Shown piece by piece: positions 3,528 through 41,983 of a stretch of 41,983 nt of DNA. The notes below the pieces were generated by a model, which worked only from the letters and a program-made list of their open reading frames with translations, was not told where the DNA came from and ran no database searches. Positions within the stretch are counted from its first letter, which is position 1. Every line of letters starts with the position of its first letter. The position numbers and the translations under genes were made by a program. The stretch lies in the IMG/VR virus record IMGVR_UViG_3300044449_000103, positions 1 through 41,983 of that record, one strand, 5' to 3'. Origin of the DNA: a virus. Its lineage: Duplodnaviria; Caudoviricetes.

Positions 3528-4870
3528 TGTACGACGACGATATCGAGTCTCATCCCAGTATCAAGATCCCGCCTCATTCGATTGAGGCTGAGCGTTCGGT
3601 GCTGGGTGGATTGATGATTGCCAACGACGCTTGGTACGAGATTGCGAATGTCGTCAAGGGCGATGATTTTTATCGAAATGATCACCGGACAATTTTCCGG
3701 TGCATGTCGAGTCTCGTAGATCACGAGCAGCCGATCGATATCGTTACCGTGGCGGAGCATCTCCACAAAAGCGGTGAGTTGGATGGTATCGGTGGCATGC
3801 ACTACCTGAGAGATCTCACGTCCTCGACACCGTCGACCGCAAACATCGCTGCTTACGGAAAAATCGTCGCTGAACGGTCAAGACGCCGTAACGTCATTGG
3901 CGCTAGTCACGATTTATCGTCAGCCCTTCTGGGCGACGGAGATACCGAGTCGTCCTTGAACAAATTCCTTACCGCCGTTGATGAGGATGAAAAGTCTGCT
4001 GAGCAGGTCTCTCTGAGAGAAGCCCTCACACGAGCTGTTGAATACACCGATCAGGCTTACCAAAAAGCGAAGGAAGGTGTGATCAGGGGCATACCGACTG
4101 GTATCGAGAGATTTGACGACAAGCATGGCGGCCTTCAAGACGGCCATCTGTACATCATCGGCGCTCGCCCAAGCATGGGTAAGACAGCCGTTGCTTGCAA
4201 CATCATGTGGGGGGCACTTCAAGCAGGCAAGCGAGTCGGTTTTATGTCGCTGGAGATGCCATCGCAAGATATCGCGCATCGGATGATCTCATTGGCGGGC
4301 TCCGTGCCAGCCGAAAGGATGCGAAACGGCAAGCTAGACGATCACGACTGGCCCAGACTCACTTCAGGCGTATCCCTGCTGAATGACAAGGCGATGGAGA
4401 TCTATGACGGTGATGAAGATCACATCAATGACCTAATTCATGTTGCTATGCGAATGAAACACCGCAACAAGATTGACTTGTTGGTTATTGACTACGTGCA
4501 ACTGATCGAAGGTGACGGCAACAGCAGGACTGAAGAGCTCAATCAGATTACGCGAAAGCTCAAAAAGAAAATCGCCAAGCGCCTTCGAATACCGGTAATC
4601 GCATTGGCTCAGATCAATCGAGAGGTAGAGAAGCGAGCCAACAAACGACCCACGAAGGCTGACCTCAAAGACTCTGGCAGCATCGAGCAGGATGCAGACA
4701 TGGTAATTCTCTTGCATCGCGAGGGTTACTACGACGACACCAAGGCTGACAACACTCTCGAATACATCATCGACAAAAATCGTCACGGACCGACAGGAAC
4801 GATCTGGTGTGGCTGGGAAGGTGAGCTCATGCAGATCACTCAGCGGAGGCACAATGAACACGACGATTGA
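3527..4870 (+). CDS. dnaB: Replicative DNA helicase
   Basis: PPHSIEAERSVLG N-terminus, Walker A GARPSMGKT, SLEM, VIDYVQL, DLKDSGSIEQDAD, KNRHGPTG. Confidence 0.97.
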   Translation: MYDDDIESHPSIKIPPHSIEAERSVLGGLMIANDAWYEIANVVKGDDFYRNDHRTIFRCMSSLVDHEQPIDIVTVAEHLHKSGELDGIGGMHYLRDLTSSTPSTANIAAYGKIVAERSRRRNVIGASHDLSSALLGDGDTESSLNKFLTAVDEDEKSAEQVSLREALTRAVEYTDQAYQKAKEGVIRGIPTGIERFDDKHGGLQDGHLYIIGARPSMGKTAVACNIMWGALQAGKRVGFMSLEMPSQDIAHRMISLAGSVPAERMRNGKLDDHDWPRLTSGVSLLNDKAMEIYDGDEDHINDLIHVAMRMKHRNKIDLLVIDYVQLIEGDGNSRTEELNQITRKLKKKIAKRLRIPVIALAQINREVEKRANKRPTKADLKDSGSIEQDADMVILLHREGYYDDTKADNTLEYIIDKNRHGPTGTIWCGWEGELMQITQRRHNEHDD

Positions 4871-33514: not shown

Positions 33515-36500
33515 ATGAACATCTCAAAAATTCGAGAGGAGTACCCCCAGTACTCTGACTTGTCTGATCAGGAACTCGCTGACGGATTCCATAAAAAGTT
33601 TTACAGTGACATCGATAAAACAGAATTCTATAAGTCTATTGGGTTTGATCAGCCCAGTGCACCAGTACCCACAGCCGATAGCTCGGATGATGAACGAGGA
33701 TTCCTTAACAACGCTGTTCGTGGCGCTACGGAGCGAGCCTCTGATCTATTGTCCAATTTCTTCGGCGCAGCCGGTACCGCGGCAGACGCCCTTGAGGAGA
33801 AGCTGCAGCTGGGCGGTTTTGTCTATGATGACCAAGGTCCTCGATATCTGAAGAGCGATCAGTTCGCTCAGTTTCAACAAGAGAACAATTCTGACGGTGC
33901 GCTCAATAGCGCATCCGAATCGTTTGAGAGCTTTTCGGCAGATTACGTACCACGCGAGACGTGGCAGGCCGTCAAAGATTCCTATTTTGAGAACGGTGCC
34001 CTAAGCGCTTCCACTGCGGGGCAGGTTCTTAGCTACGGTCTCGAGCAAGGCATTAAGTCAGTACCTGACATGGTGAGCGTGATGCTCAGTCTTCCAGCTT
34101 ATGTAATTTCCCGTGCCGGCGAGATCGGTGAAGAACGCGCGATTAATAAGGGCAAATCTGATGCCGAATTGGTAGAAATTGTCGAGGCGTTACCAGCTGC
34201 TTTGGGTAGTGCATTGTTCGAGCGTATTGGTGCCAAAGGAATCGTCAATGCAGGCTCAGAAGCCGCGGAGGCAGTTGGCAAAGAAGCGCTGCAATCCGGT
34301 TTCGCCCGGGTCGCAAAAGAAGGTGGAAAGGCAGCAACCAAAGAGGCAGCGACTGAAGCATTTCAGGAAGGCGTGATCGAATATCTTGGGGAAAAACTCG
34401 GTACCGGTGCCGAGATGTCATTCGCAGAGGCAGGTGAACGAGGCTTAGCTGGCGCTCTCGCTGGCGGAGTGTTCGGTGGTGTTGCGGGCAGTGCAGTTGC
34501 ATCCGGACGTGAATTAACGAATGCGATGCGAGATAACGAGATTGCTGCCACCAAAGATGTGATGGAGGCAGAAACGCTTGATGATGCTATCGCGGCCGCA
34601 GAGGAAGTCGTCGACGGAGTACCAACACCCGAGGAAGCTATTGCCGAACTCGAGGCTGAGTTAAACAATGCCGGACCCTCTATTGAATCCGAGTTTGCTT
34701 CTGAGCCGACTATAGAGAGCGAACTACTTGACGCGGAGACACAGGCGGTCGTTGACGATGTGGCTGGCGCAAACGATCAAACCCCAACGGCAATGGAACT
34801 GGCGTTTCAACAAGCTCAGTCAGAGCAACGAACTGAGGAGCAAGCAGATGTACCAGACACTGAAACAGAAACGAGCGTTGATGCACAACCTGATCGAGCA
34901 AATGCAGCAGAGACTGGATCCGACTCCATCGACAGCAATCGATTTCAACGAGAAGAGATTGACCGTGCAGGAAATGACGCCGCCACATCCCCGAACAATG
35001 ATCTCAAAGAGCCTACCGAAGCCCAACGTGAGGCAGGTAACTTCAAGATGGGCCACACAAAGGTCGGAGGGTTTGATATCACGATTGAATTTCCGCGTGG
35101 ATCGACCCGTAAAGGAAAAAACAAGGAAGGTGTTGAGTGGGAGCGGACTCTTGAATCTGACTACGGTTACATAAAGCGAACCAAGGGTGCAGACGGTGAA
35201 AACGTCGACGTCTTCATAGGTGAGAACCCAGAGAGCGATAAGGTTTTTGTCGTTGACCAAGTGAGTCCAGACTCAAAAGAGTTTGACGAGCAGAAGGTCA
35301 TGATGGGCTTTGATACCAAACAGTCTGCACGTGATGGTTACCTCGCTAACTATGCAGAAGACTGGCAAGGCCTTGGCGCCATTACCGAAATGACACAGGA
35401 CCAGTTCAAAGACTGGGTGAACAACGGCGATCTGAGCAAGCCTGTCAGTGATATCGAAGGACAACAAGAGATTCTGCTTTCTCGCTCTGGTGTTCCATTT
35501 AAGTCTGAGCGCTCTGCAAAGCTCTCTCAGACGTTTAAGGCAAACCCTGAAGCGAATGTGGTTCCAGTAGATGGAGGCTTTGGAATAGCGCCACAGAGAG
35601 CCGGTGGCGATGTTGAAGCATCGGCAGTCGCGAGTCTGAGAACTGGTGGGTTGGTTCGGACCGCGGATGTTGCTGACGCTCAGGCTCTAGAAGTTGAGAC
35701 CAGCCCACAGAAAATCGTTGCTTCCATGCGTGAGCACTTCAATGTGCCTCTTCGCAAGGGGCGGCTTAGCATGAGAAAAGCTGCCGGCACCCATAACAAA
35801 AAGACCGGTGTGATTCGTCAGAAGAACATGGTTGATCTTGAGGTGTTCAGTCATGAGCTCGGCCATGCGCTTGAATCTCGGTTTGGAGAGAAGCTGACTG
35901 CTTTGATCGGCGCCAACGAAAAAGAAATCGCGCCATTGTCTTACGACCCCCTTCTGCCGAAGGAGCAACTCCTAAGGGAGGGGTTTGCTGAGTTTTTCCG
36001 AATCTATGTGACAAACCCTCAATGGGCTAAGCGTAATGCGCCCCAGTTTGAAAAGCAGTTTTCGGAGTACATGACTCAGGTATCGCCTCAGGATCTTGCG
36101 CAGATACAAGCTGCCCAAAAGGTTTACGAAGACTATTTGGGCGCGTCTTCTGAGACAGCCATCAAAGGCAGCATGTCGACAACCGACAAAGGCAACATCT
36201 TTCGACGGTTCCAGCTCGCAACAAAGCCAAAGGCACTAGGCGAGAACCTGCGCGCTTGGGGAAACGACGTGTACACGTCTTTCATCAACCGGCAGCATCC
36301 CATCTACATGGCTGTGAAGCAGCTGGAGAAGATTCACAACAGTAATGCAAAGTCGCGACTCAATCTGAAACGTGCTGATGATGCACACGTACTAGCGAGA
36401 CTAGCAGTTGATGCGTTCTCTGCAGGTCAGGTTCAGCTCGAAAAGGGAGTCATCGCCTACGACGGCATCTATCCAGAGGGCCCAAGTTTGCAGGGAGCGA

Positions 36501-39223
36501 TCCACAAAGCACTCGATGGGAACTTCTCTCAGGACAAGGTCAAAGACTTTGGCTCATATCTCATTAGTCGAAGGGCCATTCACGAGTGGAACAACTACGC
36601 AGAAGGTAAGATCAGAAACCGTCCTACGCTTCAAAGCAAGAAAGATCACGAAAACAACATCGCGACGATGGAAAGTGAGAACAAGTCGTTCAAGGAAGCT
36701 GCCGAGGATCTTTACACATTTTTGGAAGCTCATTGGAAGAAGAAGTTCGACGCAGGCCTGATTACTGCCGAGCAGTATCAAGAAGGACTGGACAATCACA
36801 AAGATTACGTCCCTTTCATGCGCGATCGTTCAGACCTGACGGAAACCGGTGGCGGTGGTAGCGGCGGTGAAGGAACCGGCCGCAACAGTATTATGAAACG
36901 ATTCGAGGGTTCAGATCGGGACATTATCAACCCAATAGAATCGATCATGAGCGACGTGTATCAAACAGAATCGATGATCAAAACTAACGATGCTCGAAAG
37001 GCGCTTGCTGACCTTGCCGACGTGGCTGGCTATGGCAGCGGTACCGTGATCGAGAGAATCCCTGATAAGGAAATGAAACAAAGCACCTATTCGGCTGATC
37101 AGATTAAGAGTGCTATCAAGAGTCAGGTTGCATCGGAAGGCATGAGTGACCGGGATGCCCAAAGCCTTGAGACTGTATTGCTGGGAATCGACGACCTAGA
37201 CCTCACATCCGTTCACATGTACAAACCGGGCGAGATTAACGAACGTGGCGAGCCAATCATCTACGTCTGGAGAAATGGCCAGAGAGAGGCTTACAGACTT
37301 GCTGACGGCGATTTCGGCTTAGCATTGTATGAAGCGATAACTGGGATCAATAAAGAACAGGTTGGTACACTAACGAACCTTTTAAGTGTTCCAGCGCAAA
37401 TGATGAGGCTCGGTATTACTACTGAACCGACGTTCCAATTAACGAATACCATTCGTGGCGAGCTGACTGCTTGGGCGTTAAACCCAGACTATCGGCCCGG
37501 TGTTGATTTCATGAAGGGTGCTAAGAGTGCCGCAATGTTCGATGAGCAGAAGCAGGCTTACATTGGTGCTGGTGGAATGATGGGAGGTATCAACACATCA
37601 TCACTCTCTGCAAAACGCGCACAGAAGGATATTGAACAGCTTTCCCGAGACGGAATTGATATCAAGAGAGTCTCCTTTAGAAACGTCCTGACCTTGTCTG
37701 AGTTCTCAGAAAGCGCGATGCGAATCGGATTGTTCAGAACTACTTTCAAGGAGGCCAAGAAGCGAGGACTCAGTGATAAACAGGCAGTAATTGAGGCTGC
37801 ATTCACCGCCAGAGATATCACCGACTACTCTATGGTCGGCTCAAAGATGATGGGGGCACAGAGACTCGTTACTTTCCTTGGCGCAGCTTTGAAAGGTATC
37901 GACAAGTTCGCTAGAACAATCGGTGGCTCTGGATCGTATCAAGCAGCTCTGGATGCATACTTCAAAGGGCAAGACCAAGAGACTTTGTCTGATGTCGATA
38001 AGAAAAATCTGAAAGCAGCTCGTGGTGTTATGGTTTGGATGATGTCAGCTGGATTGGCAGGCGCTGCTCTTACGGCTCTCTACACCGATGACCCGGAGTA
38101 CCAAGAAATCTCAGAGTATCTTCGTGCAACTCATTGGATGCTGAGGGTTGGTGATCGATGGTTGGCGATACCGAAACCTTTCCAAGAGGCAATTCTCTCC
38201 AACATCTTTGAACGGGCTTACGAGGCTCATTACCATCAAGATCCAGAAGCTTTGGGCAGAATGCAACGAAGTGTTATGACGACAATCGGTCCACCAATGG
38301 TGCCGGTGATTCTGAGACCCGGGATTGAGCACTTCGCCAACAAGTCCATGTACAACGGAATGCCTCTGATCTCTCAGAGGCTCAAGGGACTGGAAAAAGA
38401 CCAGCAGTACTATGCATGGACCAGTTCTTTCGCCAAACAGCTTGGGAAGGCTGCTGGAGTCTCTCCGATCCTGATTGATCACTACATCACGTCTTGGACT
38501 GGTACCGTTGGCCGAACAGTGTTGAGAGCAACAACTTCTGCTGATGAGAACGCACCTGCAGATGGCCTTGAAGACATGATGATCATTTCTCGGTTCGTCC
38601 GAGACTGGACTCGCGGCGCGGTATCGAATGAAGAGTTCTATAAAAAGATGGCTGATGATGGTGGTAAGCTCAGTGCCAAGTACGCGACCTTCAGAAACTT
38701 TGTACTCAACGATGAGAATGATGAGGCTCGCGAGTATCTGGCTTCGCTTTCGGATGATGAAAAGACGTTTATCGGTGCAAAGTTTTACGCCACATACCAT
38801 CCAAAATCCAAGTCTCAGGCCAACTACCACCCAATGGTCAGGGCTGAAAAAATCGTTGCCAAACTTTACGAGGTGAGAAGAAACGTTCGGGAATCTGAAT
38901 CCCTAGAATCAGAGCAGAAAAGGCAACTCGATGATGCAATATCTGAACGCATTGTTCATGAGTTCAGGAACTCGATGATAGCTTCCCAGCAACCCGGTTA
39001 CACCAAGAGAAAAATTACGGCTCTCGAAGAAAACCTCAGAAAAATATCCCATGTTTCAGAAAGGGTAGCGGAGGAAATACTGGATCATGAGTACAAATAC
39101 CCTGCTTTTGAACAAGTCAACGAAGACTACGCGATCTTGAAAGAAGACATGCTGGGTTTGGCCCAAGACATCATTGACGACGATACAGATATCGATCTAG
39201 ATGATGCTAATCCTCTGGACTAG
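33515..39223 (+). CDS. Large polyvalent internal virion protein (InPase-like, HExxH zincin, LPD38-like)
   Basis: YPQYSDLSDQELAD N-terminus; PTEAQREAGNFKMGH...YGYIKRTKGADGENVDVFIG...FDEQKVMMGF; SHELGHALE...EGFAEF; W.AIPKPF...SPILIDHYI. Confidence 0.85.
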   Translation: MNISKIREEYPQYSDLSDQELADGFHKKFYSDIDKTEFYKSIGFDQPSAPVPTADSSDDERGFLNNAVRGATERASDLLSNFFGAAGTAADALEEKLQLGGFVYDDQGPRYLKSDQFAQFQQENNSDGALNSASESFESFSADYVPRETWQAVKDSYFENGALSASTAGQVLSYGLEQGIKSVPDMVSVMLSLPAYVISRAGEIGEERAINKGKSDAELVEIVEALPAALGSALFERIGAKGIVNAGSEAAEAVGKEALQSGFARVAKEGGKAATKEAATEAFQEGVIEYLGEKLGTGAEMSFAEAGERGLAGALAGGVFGGVAGSAVASGRELTNAMRDNEIAATKDVMEAETLDDAIAAAEEVVDGVPTPEEAIAELEAELNNAGPSIESEFASEPTIESELLDAETQAVVDDVAGANDQTPTAMELAFQQAQSEQRTEEQADVPDTETETSVDAQPDRANAAETGSDSIDSNRFQREEIDRAGNDAATSPNNDLKEPTEAQREAGNFKMGHTKVGGFDITIEFPRGSTRKGKNKEGVEWERTLESDYGYIKRTKGADGENVDVFIGENPESDKVFVVDQVSPDSKEFDEQKVMMGFDTKQSARDGYLANYAEDWQGLGAITEMTQDQFKDWVNNGDLSKPVSDIEGQQEILLSRSGVPFKSERSAKLSQTFKANPEANVVPVDGGFGIAPQRAGGDVEASAVASLRTGGLVRTADVADAQALEVETSPQKIVASMREHFNVPLRKGRLSMRKAAGTHNKKTGVIRQKNMVDLEVFSHELGHALESRFGEKLTALIGANEKEIAPLSYDPLLPKEQLLREGFAEFFRIYVTNPQWAKRNAPQFEKQFSEYMTQVSPQDLAQIQAAQKVYEDYLGASSETAIKGSMSTTDKGNIFRRFQLATKPKALGENLRAWGNDVYTSFINRQHPIYMAVKQLEKIHNSNAKSRLNLKRADDAHVLARLAVDAFSAGQVQLEKGVIAYDGIYPEGPSLQGAIHKALDGNFSQDKVKDFGSYLISRRAIHEWNNYAEGKIRNRPTLQSKKDHENNIATMESENKSFKEAAEDLYTFLEAHWKKKFDAGLITAEQYQEGLDNHKDYVPFMRDRSDLTETGGGGSGGEGTGRNSIMKRFEGSDRDIINPIESIMSDVYQTESMIKTNDARKALADLADVAGYGSGTVIERIPDKEMKQSTYSADQIKSAIKSQVASEGMSDRDAQSLETVLLGIDDLDLTSVHMYKPGEINERGEPIIYVWRNGQREAYRLADGDFGLALYEAITGINKEQVGTLTNLLSVPAQMMRLGITTEPTFQLTNTIRGELTAWALNPDYRPGVDFMKGAKSAAMFDEQKQAYIGAGGMMGGINTSSLSAKRAQKDIEQLSRDGIDIKRVSFRNVLTLSEFSESAMRIGLFRTTFKEAKKRGLSDKQAVIEAAFTARDITDYSMVGSKMMGAQRLVTFLGAALKGIDKFARTIGGSGSYQAALDAYFKGQDQETLSDVDKKNLKAARGVMVWMMSAGLAGAALTALYTDDPEYQEISEYLRATHWMLRVGDRWLAIPKPFQEAILSNIFERAYEAHYHQDPEALGRMQRSVMTTIGPPMVPVILRPGIEHFANKSMYNGMPLISQRLKGLEKDQQYYAWTSSFAKQLGKAAGVSPILIDHYITSWTGTVGRTVLRATTSADENAPADGLEDMMIISRFVRDWTRGAVSNEEFYKKMADDGGKLSAKYATFRNFVLNDENDEAREYLASLSDDEKTFIGAKFYATYHPKSKSQANYHPMVRAEKIVAKLYEVRRNVRESESLESEQKRQLDDAISERIVHEFRNSMIASQQPGYTKRKITALEENLRKISHVSERVAEEILDHEYKYPAFEQVNEDYAILKEDMLGLAQDIIDDDTDIDLDDANPLD

Positions 39224-39424
39224 GTACTTCTTCCTCATTCGATACTTTAACTTTGCCGGACCCGTATATGATCCAAACATCTCCAGTCTTGCGGTCGAGC
39301 AATAGGTCTTTGCCATGAATGTTGTACCTATCGTTCCCTGAGCCCTCGTACATAAAGATCGCGGCAATACCGAAGCCAACGAGGAAGGCGAGGAATGCGA
39401 TTTCAAGCTTAGACAAATCTTTCA
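39207..39424 (-). CDS. Small membrane-anchored protein (moron)
   Basis: GGGAG RBS before ATG 39424; N-terminal TM; LLDRKTGDVW. Confidence 0.7.
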
Positions 39425-39613
39425 TAGATGACTCCCAATCAGAAAAACAGAGTTCGACCAATCTCCGTTTTGCCGAGTTGTCGAGATCTTAGAGCGAATT
39501 GAGCCTTTGCGTCAAAACAATATACGAATAAAGATCATGCAAATAGATCCGCACCACCGATGTTGACCCCCATAAAGCGATGTGGTTAAGTTCGCCCGAT
39601 TGAGGAGTGCTTT

Positions 39614-39865
39614 ATGGGCGTAGTAGTACTGGTGTGCAATTCTGAGCAGCCAGATCTTGTAGCGAATATTGAACGTTTATACCCTGAGCACTACAAGATG
39701 GGCGTTTGCCAGTGGGCGATTTCAACTCCCGATTTGACTGAGACTGTCGTGGAGAAACTAGGTGCAGGCGACGGAGATATGGGGTCGGTGGTTGTGTTTA
39801 GTATCAACGGTTACTATGGATATCACGATCTAGCTTTGTGGGAGTTTTTGTCGAGGAACTCATGA
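39614..39865 (+). CDS. Small alpha/beta hypothetical protein (moron)
   Basis: GAGGAG RBS; TTGACC at 39563 is a possible -35 box. Confidence 0.75.
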   Translation: MGVVVLVCNSEQPDLVANIERLYPEHYKMGVCQWAISTPDLTETVVEKLGAGDGDMGSVVVFSINGYYGYHDLALWEFLSRNS

Positions 39866-40164
39866 CTGACCAGCAATCCCCTCCAGAAAAGAGCGTAGGA
39901 CCACCACCGGTAGCTGTGACGAAGGAAGACTGGATCCTTCAGCAATTGAATCTTCACGGCCGAGAAATTGGTCAAAACACGGCTAAACTTGAAACTATGG
40001 ACTCTCAATTGACTGGGCTGTCGGATGACATCAAGCTGCTAAACAAAACTCTTCAGAGGGTACTCTGGACGATTGCGTTTGCCTCCGGCGCACTCGTTGT
40101 GCTCGGCTTTTTGATTAATCTCAAAGCCGAAGAAATTTTGAATGCCTTTTCAAAGCTCTCCTAG
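39862..40164 (+). CDS. Coiled-coil protein with C-terminal TM helix
   Basis: GAGGA RBS and ATGA overlap at 39862; VLWTIAFASGALVVLGFLI. Confidence 0.75.
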   Translation: MTDQQSPPEKSVGPPPVAVTKEDWILQQLNLHGREIGQNTAKLETMDSQLTGLSDDIKLLNKTLQRVLWTIAFASGALVVLGFLINLKAEEILNAFSKLS

Positions 40165-40167
40165 ATA

Positions 40168-40256
40168 GTGGCTTGGGGTGTTTTTTACGTGGTCACCCTC
40201 CACCCTTGCCTTGAGTTGCCCGCCAAGCCACGCCTAGCCCCGACACGCCTAGCCTC
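40168..40256 (-). ncRNA. Candidate guide-like RNA: phased GGC-NN pentamer tract plus 3' fold-back
   Basis: Minus strand from 40254: GGC-TA GGC-GT GTC-GG GGC-TA GGC-GT GGC-TT GGC-G GGC-AA CTC-AA GGC-AA GGG. Begins 11 nt after the stop codon of 40266..40736. Confidence 0.7.
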
Positions 40257-40265
40257 AGATCCTAA

Positions 40266-40736
40266 CTATAAACCCTGAAGGGCCATATCCATAGTAGAAA
40301 GCGCCTCTGATAGTTCAGTGATCCTTTCATACTTGGTTTTGTATGTTGACCAATCGTGCTTGGCCTGAGCGATCAGACTCTCCCTTAACCTCGGTGTCGT
40401 ATACACTTTTTCCGATGATCGATAACCAGACCCTTCGCTCCGCAGCTGCACAAAGGCAGGAGCCACTAAGGGCTCTTGCTTGACTGTGTTGACGACGACC
40501 TCAACCCTTCGGATTAGCCTTCGAGCTTGAGACTTTCGGTAGTTCTCTGCTGCAGATTGATCGTCCCAGTCGAAGAACTTATGCAGAGGTGCGCTTGGAT
40601 CCCGGGATGCGTCAATCACGTCTCCCGGGTTTAACTTACCTCCATGCGCTTGCCTGATTTCTTCAAGCGACTCACCGACCATCTGAGCTTCACCGGATGG
40701 TTTGTCGGCTTCGGCGAATTTGTAGATTTTACTCAT
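40266..40736 (-). CDS. Conserved phage hypothetical protein, partner of the RAMP-like gene
   Basis: LNPGDVIDASRDPSAPLHKFFDWDDQSAAENYRKSQARRLI; ATGA-coupled to the upstream gene. Confidence 0.8.
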   Translation of the reverse strand: MSKIYKFAEADKPSGEAQMVGESLEEIRQAHGGKLNPGDVIDASRDPSAPLHKFFDWDDQSAAENYRKSQARRLIRRVEVVVNTVKQEPLVAPAFVQLRSEGSGYRSSEKVYTTPRLRESLIAQAKHDWSTYKTKYERITELSEALSTMDMALQGL

Positions 40737-41332
40737 CTGCCAAACCTCGCTTTAAAGTCATCGATTTCATCCGCATTGGCGATCCTGAACCGACCATAGT
40801 TGCCATCACGTTCAGGGCGCCAGTCACCCACACCAGTCTTAAATCCCGAGCGAGAAACGAGACTGGCGATCTGTTCAAGACTAATGGTGTCGGCATCGAG
40901 CTGTATCTGAAACTCTGTCGCCCACTCTTTGAAGACTGAGCGGTATCGGATGTCAGCTACGCCGCGTCCGACCCTTACCATGGATTTGTGAAGCTCCGGT
41001 ACACCGTAGATTGGCACCAACGAGCCTTCTATGTGGAAGTCCCCTTTGGTGTCGATCATGGTCATGCCGTCGATCTGCTTGGCAGCGCGAACAAAGGCAT
41101 TTTTGAATCCAGCTGATGGAAAACCGAACTCAGTAATTCCGTCAGGTGGCATTGGATAGAGAGATTCCCTGAATTTCTTCTCTGCATCACGTTTGCCGCG
41201 CGGTGTAGATTTATTAGTGTCCTCAAGTGCCTCCATTGCTGCCTGTGGGTTATTGCAGATCAGGGGACTGACACCGATGATTCCAAGACTGAACTCTTGG
41301 ATATTCATTTGTCGAATTTCGACCGTAGCCAT
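40733..41332 (-). CDS. Stand-alone Cas7/RAMP-like protein
   Basis: Beta-1 LGIIGVSPLI, FPSAGFKNAF (compare iPgSslKGal), Gly-rich loop GVGDWRPERDGNYGRF; AAGGAGG RBS. Confidence 0.75.
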   Translation of the reverse strand: MATVEIRQMNIQEFSLGIIGVSPLICNNPQAAMEALEDTNKSTPRGKRDAEKKFRESLYPMPPDGITEFGFPSAGFKNAFVRAAKQIDGMTMIDTKGDFHIEGSLVPIYGVPELHKSMVRVGRGVADIRYRSVFKEWATEFQIQLDADTISLEQIASLVSRSGFKTGVGDWRPERDGNYGRFRIANADEIDDFKARFGR

Positions 41333-41378
41333 ACGCTACCTCCTTAAAGTTGTTAGCAAAAAGTTGATTAGCGCAGAG

Positions 41379-41561
41379 TTACTCTGGCAAAACGTCATAG
41401 ACGTTATTGCCGAATTCAGTAAGAGAAGACTCCACTTCAGCAGCTCGTCCGTTTGCTAAGCTTTCAGAAAGTTGTCGTAGGTAAAGAAATAATTCGAGGG
41501 AATCGAATGAGGCGTACCGAACGCCGGATTGGTTTGCTATGCTAGCAATAGTCATAATCAT
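41379..41561 (-). CDS. Small hypothetical protein, first gene of the RAMP-like operon
   Basis: 60-aa ORF with AGGA upstream; start is 41561 or 41555. Confidence 0.5.
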   Translation of the reverse strand: MIMTIASIANQSGVRYASFDSLELFLYLRQLSESLANGRAAEVESSLTEFGNNVYDVLPE

Positions 41562-41624
41562 CGTCCTAGTTGATGTTTGTGATTAGAGCCTGTTCGGAGC
41601 GCCAACTCCGTTCAGGTTCGTTAC

Positions 41625-41652
41625 AGATTACCCCACGGATGCGGCTTGTCAA
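41625..41652 (-). promoter_or_regulatory. Sigma-70 promoter for the RAMP-like operon
   Basis: TTGACA(41652-41647)-16 bp-TAATCT(41630-41625) with an AT-rich UP-like tract upstream. Confidence 0.65.
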
Positions 41653-41868
41653 GAAATTATTTTTGGAGTTTGCATGAACAGCGAAACAAACCTACGTCAA
41701 AGTGTGCTTTGTGTGTCTCTTACTAACGGGCTATCTCTGCCTGTTGGAGTCTTCCTTGAGGGGCGTGACGGAGAGCAAGAATCATTTGGATTGTGCGTCA
41801 AAAAAAGTCTTAGAAGCGAGCCTCAGAAGCTCTTACCAAGAGTTCTCAAAAACATCGACGGAGCTGGA

Positions 41869-41983
41869 TGATCTTGCCCAGTAATATCGGACACTCATTT
41901 AAGCAACTTTCTTCATAGTCTCATAAGCTTGCGGGCTGATGAGGCCGTTAGCACTATGCCGCCGTTTTTGATTGTAGTAAACC
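41869..41983 (-). mobile_element. IS3-family insertion sequence, right end (second copy, inverted)
   Basis: Reverse complement of 1-114; starts TGATCTTGCCCAG. Confidence 0.88.

Follow-up and report, generated by a model that had tools for sequence, protein, structure and literature searches.

A VIPR locus in a temperate-phage-like contig with proteins of the staggered-array clade and a predicted SUSP1-type guide tail

A 41,983-nucleotide stretch of DNA from a tailed virus (Caudoviricetes; IMG/VR record IMGVR_UViG_3300044449_000103), hereafter the window, carries a tract of pentamers in which GGC is constant and the remaining dinucleotide varies. What such a tract might specify is the question raised by this locus, and a sequence-only reading had proposed that the dinucleotides form a non-contiguous guide code. 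A mechanism matching this idea has been published for VIPR, which combines the protein Vipr with vrRNAs of alternating GGY triplets and NN pairs; double-stranded DNA is recognised by the NN pairs, each followed by one skipped base, and transcription of competing elements is silenced (10.64898/2026.04.26.720920). In the same paper, arrays with 1-nt overlaps are called staggered and the SUSP1 clade is said to have a pseudoknot tail; ribozyme arrays are described as well, and the search threshold is at least four YNNGG units, a typical guide having 9–16. The proposed code turned out to be this already published system, since the first gene of the adjoining operon matches the SUSP1 Vipr and a Cas7 RAMP fold, and because the code was already published the locus adds an example and no new mechanism. 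By descent, the locus is almost certainly a VIPR. It consists of vipr and one accessory gene (vap), without a CRISPR array, among phage genes; no CRISPR-like repeat family was found in the contig. The tract lies 11 nt downstream of this two-gene operon, in a 101-nt gap between the minus-strand gene pair and a converging plus-strand ORF that ends at 40164. Coordinates of the features are collected in Table 1.

Table 1. Features of the vipr locus and its repeat tract (positions in the window)
Feature	Position	Strand	Basis
Guide repeats 1–7: GGC TA, GGC GT, GTC GG, GGC TA, GGC GT, GGC TT, GGC G	40221..40254	minus	sequence
Repeats 8–9, past the slip: GGC AA, CTC AA	40211..40220	minus	sequence
Six-base final unit GGC AAG with a further G, ahead of the tail	40204..40210	minus	lead-in like SUSP1-clade and LESphi2 vrRNA ends
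H-type pseudoknot tail (predicted)	40176..40203	minus	predicted pairing; SUSP1 vrRNA1 likeness
Possible -10 hexamer TATAGT, ten bases ahead of the first GGC; weak, no good -35	40265..40270	minus	by eye
Accessory gene resembling vap, 156 aa (phrog_15946); putative function	40266..40736	minus	homologues at vipr loci
vipr gene, 199 aa, RAMP-fold protein (phrog_4652)	40733..41332	minus	PDB 36pp match, model, Foldseek
Weak candidate promoter of the operon, TTGACA-16 nt-TAATCT, ahead of vipr	41625..41652	minus	by eye

The tract occupies 40254-40222 of the minus strand as seven units in one 5-nt phase, with GGC at 40254, 40249, 40239, 40234, 40229 and 40224 and GTC at 40244. The NN pairs, read directly from the sequence, are TA, GT, GG, TA, GT and TT in that order, as the earlier reading had them. 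The seventh repeat is short by one base, which constitutes the 1-nt phase slip also noticed earlier, and is followed by GGC at 40220, CTC at 40215 and GGC at 40210. The slip is the only one and has a two-unit segment after it; ten units are counted when the tract is read through the slip, and six NN pairs if it is cut there. The published threshold of at least four YNNGG units is exceeded by the seven units in phase plus three past the slip. Two details had to be corrected: the GGG at 40205-40203, taken for a last unit, is no repeat and forms the start of the structured tail predicted below, and the leading GA is probably not a guide position because the triplet that precedes it is TCT, not GGY. 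Six GGY in seven slots were found at this one site only in both strands of the contig, the next-best unrelated site having four; the analytic expectation was 0.0004, and none of 60 order-3 Markov simulations reached six (best 5). The repeat tract is real, and chance origin is not the explanation. Between 39600 and 41800, contigs from all four runs compared, one of which may be the source, contained no other letters or gaps; all four may derive from one strain. In one run that is not marked as a source (X8), a single contig spans the tract. Rfam returned no family at gathering score over 39200-41983.

The evidence for descent comes from the first gene of the operon. The only significant sequence match of its product in the PDB was the SUSP1 Vipr (36pp), with an E of 4e-8 from the single sequence; a profile made with an 88-sequence alignment matched the same entry at E 3.6e-11 (profile positions 20-194), and the homology spans nearly the full protein length. 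A structural model of the protein reached a pLDDT of 88.7, and its best Foldseek matches, in a library that predates the VIPR preprints, were Csm and type VII Cas7 RAMPs (E 1.8e-5, TM about 0.4-0.5). On sequence and model, the 199-aa protein is a Vipr homologue with the predicted elements of a minimal RAMP, namely an RRM core, thumb and G-loop. The RAMP fold is shared with Cas7/Csm3 filaments of class 1 CRISPR systems, in which, as in VIPR, one subunit per RNA segment is described in the papers; unlike the continuous spacer of CRISPR, the window has five-base repeats and would pair with gaps. In the alignment to 36pp, SUSP1 residues R138, D177, W178 and R179, to which 10.64898/2026.04.26.720927 assigns roles in guide gripping and DNA clamping, correspond to R131, D170, W171 and R172, so that the thumb R and the G-loop D-W-R of SUSP1 are kept. 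The counterpart of K82 is likely K85, the counterparts of K33 and R39 vary with the alignment, and the position of H17, a histidine that contacts G1 in SUSP1, is N27. No viral loci were returned by a scan with the Vipr protein alone, and one of 400 genomes scored had a match, the already known G001. Pfam holds no family for Vipr or Vap.

The affiliation of the two proteins was then compared with that of the known systems. Vipr of the window is up to about 45% identical to Viprs of staggered-array loci and 27% identical to that of LESphi2; its closest relative in the searches did not exceed 48% identity. In each of three trees a fully supported branch has it on the side of the staggered loci: nested in the staggered clade in a 71-row tree, sister to that clade in a 31-row tree, and not settled relative to it in a 44-row tree. 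A joint clade with SUSP1, ESCO50 and LESphi2 was rejected (AU p 0.029, under a simpler model). Vap homologues were found at 172 of the 210 unique vipr loci listed, and the accessory genes of SUSP1-like and LESphi2 loci showed no similarity to it. By sequence, Vipr and Vap of the window are placed in the staggered-array clade, either inside it or at its base depending on the tree. Within this clade Vipr of the window is unusual, with a divergent N-terminus and departures from the clade consensus at 22 of 74 conserved columns, N27 among them (median 3, maximum 14 for the other 87 members). These deviations may reflect sparse sampling, since the G-loop D is found in 56 of 268 wider relatives fetched and the long branch depends on the tree. 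The single-sequence model of Vap was poor (pLDDT 59), and Atlas returned only unnamed viral clusters. In one tree the sister of the window's Vipr was that of locus L034, whose array (3659-4000) has joints mostly of the form GGC AG TTG A GGC, with a 9-nt spacing, and not GGC-A-GGC.

Arrays were analyzed at 228 homologous loci gathered in three scans (best 80 of 344, all 68, and best 80 of 453), of which 210 were unique. A GGY tract of at least five units was present on the vipr strand in 179 of the 210 unique listed loci and on the other strand in seven, and many relatives have their arrays directly behind vap, as in the window. Neighbouring tracts in the listed loci were phase-shifted by -1 in 445 of 503 pairs. 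Among the 321 GGY-N-GGY joints of the listed arrays N was A in 91%, and only two joints had the GGC-G-GGC form; from these counts, the slip in the window is the normal joint of the clade with a rare base, G. The window's guide is short, since 29 of 418 slip-bounded guides of relatives have six units or fewer, and it lacks the 5' GGY-N lead present in 149 of 259 clade arrays. GTC, found once in the tract, is the commonest degenerate triplet of the listed arrays (240 of 1151). The earlier reading had held that NN positions as conserved as GGC across homologues would speak against a code. Such conservation was not observed, the NN positions being near-random (1.91 and 1.99 bits) and GGY fixed (0.26-1.05 bits; 8144 units from the listed loci), although the fixity of GGY is partly due to how the tracts were picked.

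Some arrays of these relatives showed features of their own. A CTGA...GAAAC-type motif with the look of a hammerhead ribozyme stands ahead of many of them (e.g. at loci L072, L080, L093 and L136), and by a strict pattern was found at 15 of 259. In Gordonia and Mycobacterium phages (L906, L907 and L908), vrRNA tails end in a GGTTCGA-type hairpin resembling a tRNA T-arm, a third type of tail. Listonella phage phiHSIC (L905) has a type II-like Vipr homologue and no GGY tract within 1.5 kb.

Whether guides of this clade follow the one-base skip was assessed by comparing 537 homologous guides with 1.83 Mb of the same loci, in which arrays had been masked. At E<=0.001 per guide, four matches were obtained with a skip of one base (k=1) and none with k=0, 2 or 3, against 1, 0, 1, 0 and 1 in five shuffles. 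At E<=0.01, k=1 gave 12 matches, k=0, 2 and 3 gave 2, 0 and 7, and the shuffles 5, 1, 1, 3 and 7; the weaker matches are mixed with noise, since counts in the controls reach 7. The two best matches lie inside vipr genes of other loci, in codon register and with the skip on the wobble base: one guide (L045:2786) matches at 23 of 24 bases (L100:1526) and another (L080:4056) at 16 of 16 (L003:3340). These results show that guides of the staggered clade follow the one-base skip and match conserved motifs of other vipr genes; target searches in the text of 10.64898/2026.04.26.720920 concern types II, III and V. Vipr residues of the window differ at both motifs, which could be escape or drift. A further guide (L012:4079) matches 18 of 20 bases at L088:2097, in a gene reading M-T-K-D-G-F-V-F-L-A. 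This reading resembles the Rha regulators of phages.

Downstream of the repeats, an H-type pseudoknot is predicted, with a stem 1 of 40203-40200 paired with 40192-40189, a stem 2 of 40198-40194 paired with 40180-40176, and an A-rich loop at 40188-40181. Its nine Watson-Crick pairs were equalled by one of 300 shuffles. Likeness of this tail to that of a SUSP1-like locus was first spotted by eye and afterwards tested. Over 40210-40171 it is identical to the SUSP1 vrRNA1 tail at 30 of 40 positions, sharing an identical stem 1 and the A-rich loop, and its local score against SUSP1 vrRNA1 was 16, a value reached by none of 302 clade ends (maximum 13.5). The lead-in GGY-NNG-G is common to the end of the tract, SUSP1-clade vrRNAs and LESphi2 vrRNA ends. 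An anchored descriptor detected the tail at 13 of 13 SUSP1-clade vrRNAs, one of three from LESphi2, one of 14 in other distant loci, and two of 301 staggered-clade ends, both without the A-rich loop. Eight SUSP1-clade tails, excluding that of the window, show two-sided changes at seven of the nine pairs, and all nine are intact in the window despite a stem 2 that differs from SUSP1. For two models built from SUSP1-clade tails only, 40210-40171 was the top match of the contig (E 0.12 and 0.21), and it kept the top rank when 196 of the 228 loci and two further ones were scanned (E 1.8 and 1.3); of four other matches, three had no repeat tract directly ahead and one overlapped an array. These E-values alone are not significant, and the weight of the result lies in the position and strand of the site. 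The models are narrow, since they missed the LESphi2 tails. Combined, sequence and predicted pairing point, with moderate statistical strength, to a 3' pseudoknot tail in the style of type II. A 9-bp perfect inverted repeat pairs 40169-40177, just past the tail, with 40223-40231 in repeats 5-7; in a transcript extending about 10 nt beyond the pseudoknot, this hairpin would sequester the guide.

The locus thereby shows likenesses to two known systems. Like staggered-array VIPRs (10.64898/2026.04.26.720920), it has vipr, a vap of the family common to both, repeats of GGY and NN that keep to one strand, and a slip of 1 nt; unlike them, it has one short guide in place of several of 8-13 units and G in place of a mostly A joint base, and unlike most of them it has a predicted SUSP1-type tail and a Vipr with a divergent N-terminus. 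Like the type II SUSP1 system (36pp; 10.64898/2026.04.26.720920, 10.64898/2026.04.26.720927), it has about ten units, a six-base last unit and a predicted H-type pseudoknot. Its Vipr is distant from that of type II, its vap is unrelated, and it contains an internal slip, which is absent from the vrRNAs of five type II-like loci; Vipr phylogeny and the lack of a vap1 association both place it outside type II.

For the working of the locus, we lean towards the following account. The tract would supply the repeats of a VIPR-type guide locus placed directly behind vipr and vap, and its likely transcript would be an RNA of about 80 nt onto which the adjacent Vipr loads. By extension from the SUSP1 work, each Vipr subunit would grip one GGY and present the following NN, so that the protein polymerises on the RNA, and the NN pairs would read double-stranded DNA at two bases in three as TAnGTnGGnTAnGTnTT, perhaps with AA, AA added from beyond the slip. 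Binding would block transcription without cutting and silence the matching gene, probably one of a competing phage. A SUSP1-type pseudoknot would cap the 3' end of the filament even though Vipr and Vap are of the staggered-array clade, and the slip would mark a joint as in staggered arrays, or else the loss of one base from a single ten-unit guide. Speaking against this account are the lack of a target in excess of controls, the short guide with its rare joint base and missing 5' lead, the absence of internal slips from the type II-like vrRNAs, the deviating Vipr columns, the weak tail-model E-values for a likeness first spotted by eye, and the hairpin that would bury the guide in a longer transcript.

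As to how these parts came together, we tentatively propose that a Vipr and Vap of the staggered clade work with a SUSP1-type, pseudoknot-capped guide, either through a swapped tail module or as an early-branching lineage that links the two. The pairing is possibly new and rests on one locus: it is not described in the text of 10.64898/2026.04.26.720920, whose figs. 5A and S16-S18 and data S3-S4 may cover it, nor was it found in the accessible parts of 10.64898/2026.04.26.720927, 10.64898/2026.10.15.759431 and 10.64898/2026.10.21.760802. If a staggered-clade Vipr does use a SUSP1-type tail, guide scaffolds would be interchangeable between distant Vipr lineages, which would matter for the hijacking of VIPRs between phages and for combining parts in VIPR gene-silencing tools. 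Either phages would swap guide tails as modules between Vipr lineages, or an early-branching lineage would connect tail-capped with slip-processed guides, and the one-base slip in a tail-capped guide would be a natural test of staggered-array cutting.

Four other explanations were weighed against the favoured account of how the locus works. The one that survives best, while still unlikely, is a decaying VIPR: a single short guide, carrying an internal duplication and a deletion, would be what is left of the array, and the proteins would be drifting in a prophage broken by insertion sequences. The short guide, its rare joint and off-consensus CTC unit, the 22 deviating Vipr columns, an end branch of 1.9 against a median of 0.36 in the 71-row tree, the high-copy element at both ends of the contig and the lack of a found target all agree with decay. 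They are offset by two intact, full-length genes with a 4-nt overlap, the retention of R131, D170, W171 and R172, and nine tail pairs kept intact across a changed stem 2; furthermore, the Vipr branch is not long in the 31- and 44-row trees (0.81 and 0.89), and the G-loop D recurs among wider relatives.

Less probable is that the locus holds an ordinary staggered array, in which the slip is a processing joint that frees a six-unit guide and leaves the usual stub, the likeness to the SUSP1 tail being coincidental. A final slip followed by one to four GGY units does occur at 145 of 240 clade array ends, pseudoknots of at least nine pairs are present at 10 of 303 clade ends, and both tail-model E-values exceed 0.1. 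Coincidence is nevertheless at odds with a match that neither model surpasses elsewhere in the contig and that has precisely the position and strand of the array end; 30 of its 40 bases are identical to SUSP1 vrRNA1, and its score lies beyond those of the 302 clade ends.

Slightly more doubtful still is a captured 'solo' guide serving a foreign SUSP1-type Vipr of a competing phage, as a decoy or redirector that lies behind vipr and vap incidentally. Satellite silencing is described in 10.64898/2026.10.15.759431, together with solo vrRNAs that have SUSP1-like tails and redirect the Vipr of another element; those of F5 satellites and VIPR-null phages resemble the window's RNA in having such a tail outside a SUSP1-type operon, and here too the tail is SUSP1-like and the proteins are not. 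The RNA is not 'solo' as defined in that paper, because vipr and vap are adjacent. Against capture, the tract follows vap directly, as do the arrays of many relatives, and the contig, which may be incomplete, contains no second tract, so that the local Vipr would otherwise be guideless here.

A slippage microsatellite or chance G-rich repeat without guide function, in keeping with the 10-nt word GGCTAGGCGT that is indeed present twice, 15 nt apart, and with an overall fold stability no better than that of shuffles (z -0.19), is hardly credible given the simulations, the adjacent Vipr homologue, the strand-specific tracts at homologous loci and the k=1 matches of relatives' guides, and the earlier judgement that the tract is unlike such a repeat was sound.

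Targets of the NN pairs in excess of controls, as asked for in the earlier reading, were not found in the contig, the homologous loci, a viral collection or 401 genomes. With k=1 and up to two mismatches, the contig contained no self-target where 1.43 were expected by chance; self-targets are also absent for P. fulva and for type III/V guides (10.64898/2026.04.26.720920). Exact targets were absent from the 228 vipr loci, where the best match of extended 17-base forms was 15 of 17, seen once, with stop codons in both registers. The 17-base pattern was found in none of 401 genomes of one class, and its reversed control in two. No guide of a relative was similar to that of the window (best 10 of 14). 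In the viral collection, the 14-base k=1 pattern with the leading GA gave an estimated 360 or so matches, against estimates of 180, 210 and 230 for shuffled orders and 340 for k=2. With the slip read through, the 16-base pattern gave 74 matches, of which two also had the G and the third AA; these two were near-identical and off the codon register.

The largest family of matches in the viral collection comprised 28 of the 120 listed and lay, in codon register, antisense to an N-T-Y-P-T-Y-S motif. Families of the control patterns were equally large (29, 24, 5 and 29, with 117-120 matches listed per scan), and the N-T-Y-P-T-Y-S family was more diverse, with 13 subgroups at 70% identity against 3, 1, 1 and 1. 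Such a target would account for the internal duplication of the guide. Units past the slip do not lengthen the match, and the large protein of the window itself does not match the family. With four controls, this viral protein family is a lead only. Six NN pairs amount to 12 bases, too few to pinpoint a site without the host.

In the surroundings of the operon, the promoter scan reported nothing at the locus, the candidate upstream of vipr being under its threshold, and no terminator adjoining the tail was found by scan. The leader between that possible promoter and vipr (41333-41625, about 290 nt) contains small hairpins and no GGY tract. The runs containing the locus are labelled marine or synthetic metagenome. 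The contig ends in a perfect 114-bp inverted terminal repeat (1-114 and 41869-41982), whose sequence has a contig depth about 80 times that of the phage and occurs with other flanks; because of this very high depth and the other flanks, each repeat probably represents the terminus of an insertion sequence present in many copies in the host. We take this element, from its appearance, to be IS3-like; Pfam and blastn, including plasmids and E. coli, gave no match. From this we infer that the contig is a piece of prophage whose two cuts lie at copies of an insertion sequence of the host, and therefore some prophage sequence may be missing. By gene content, with a CI-like repressor, DnaB, a lysozyme, a packaging protein and a large polyvalent protein, it looks like a temperate phage. 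A gene at 13029-13730 matches the Pfam family of the CBASS inhibitor Acb3 (E 2e-45), although its product may instead be a homologue from the structural or packaging region. The polyvalent protein (33515-39223, 1902 aa) contains InPase and LPD38 domains.
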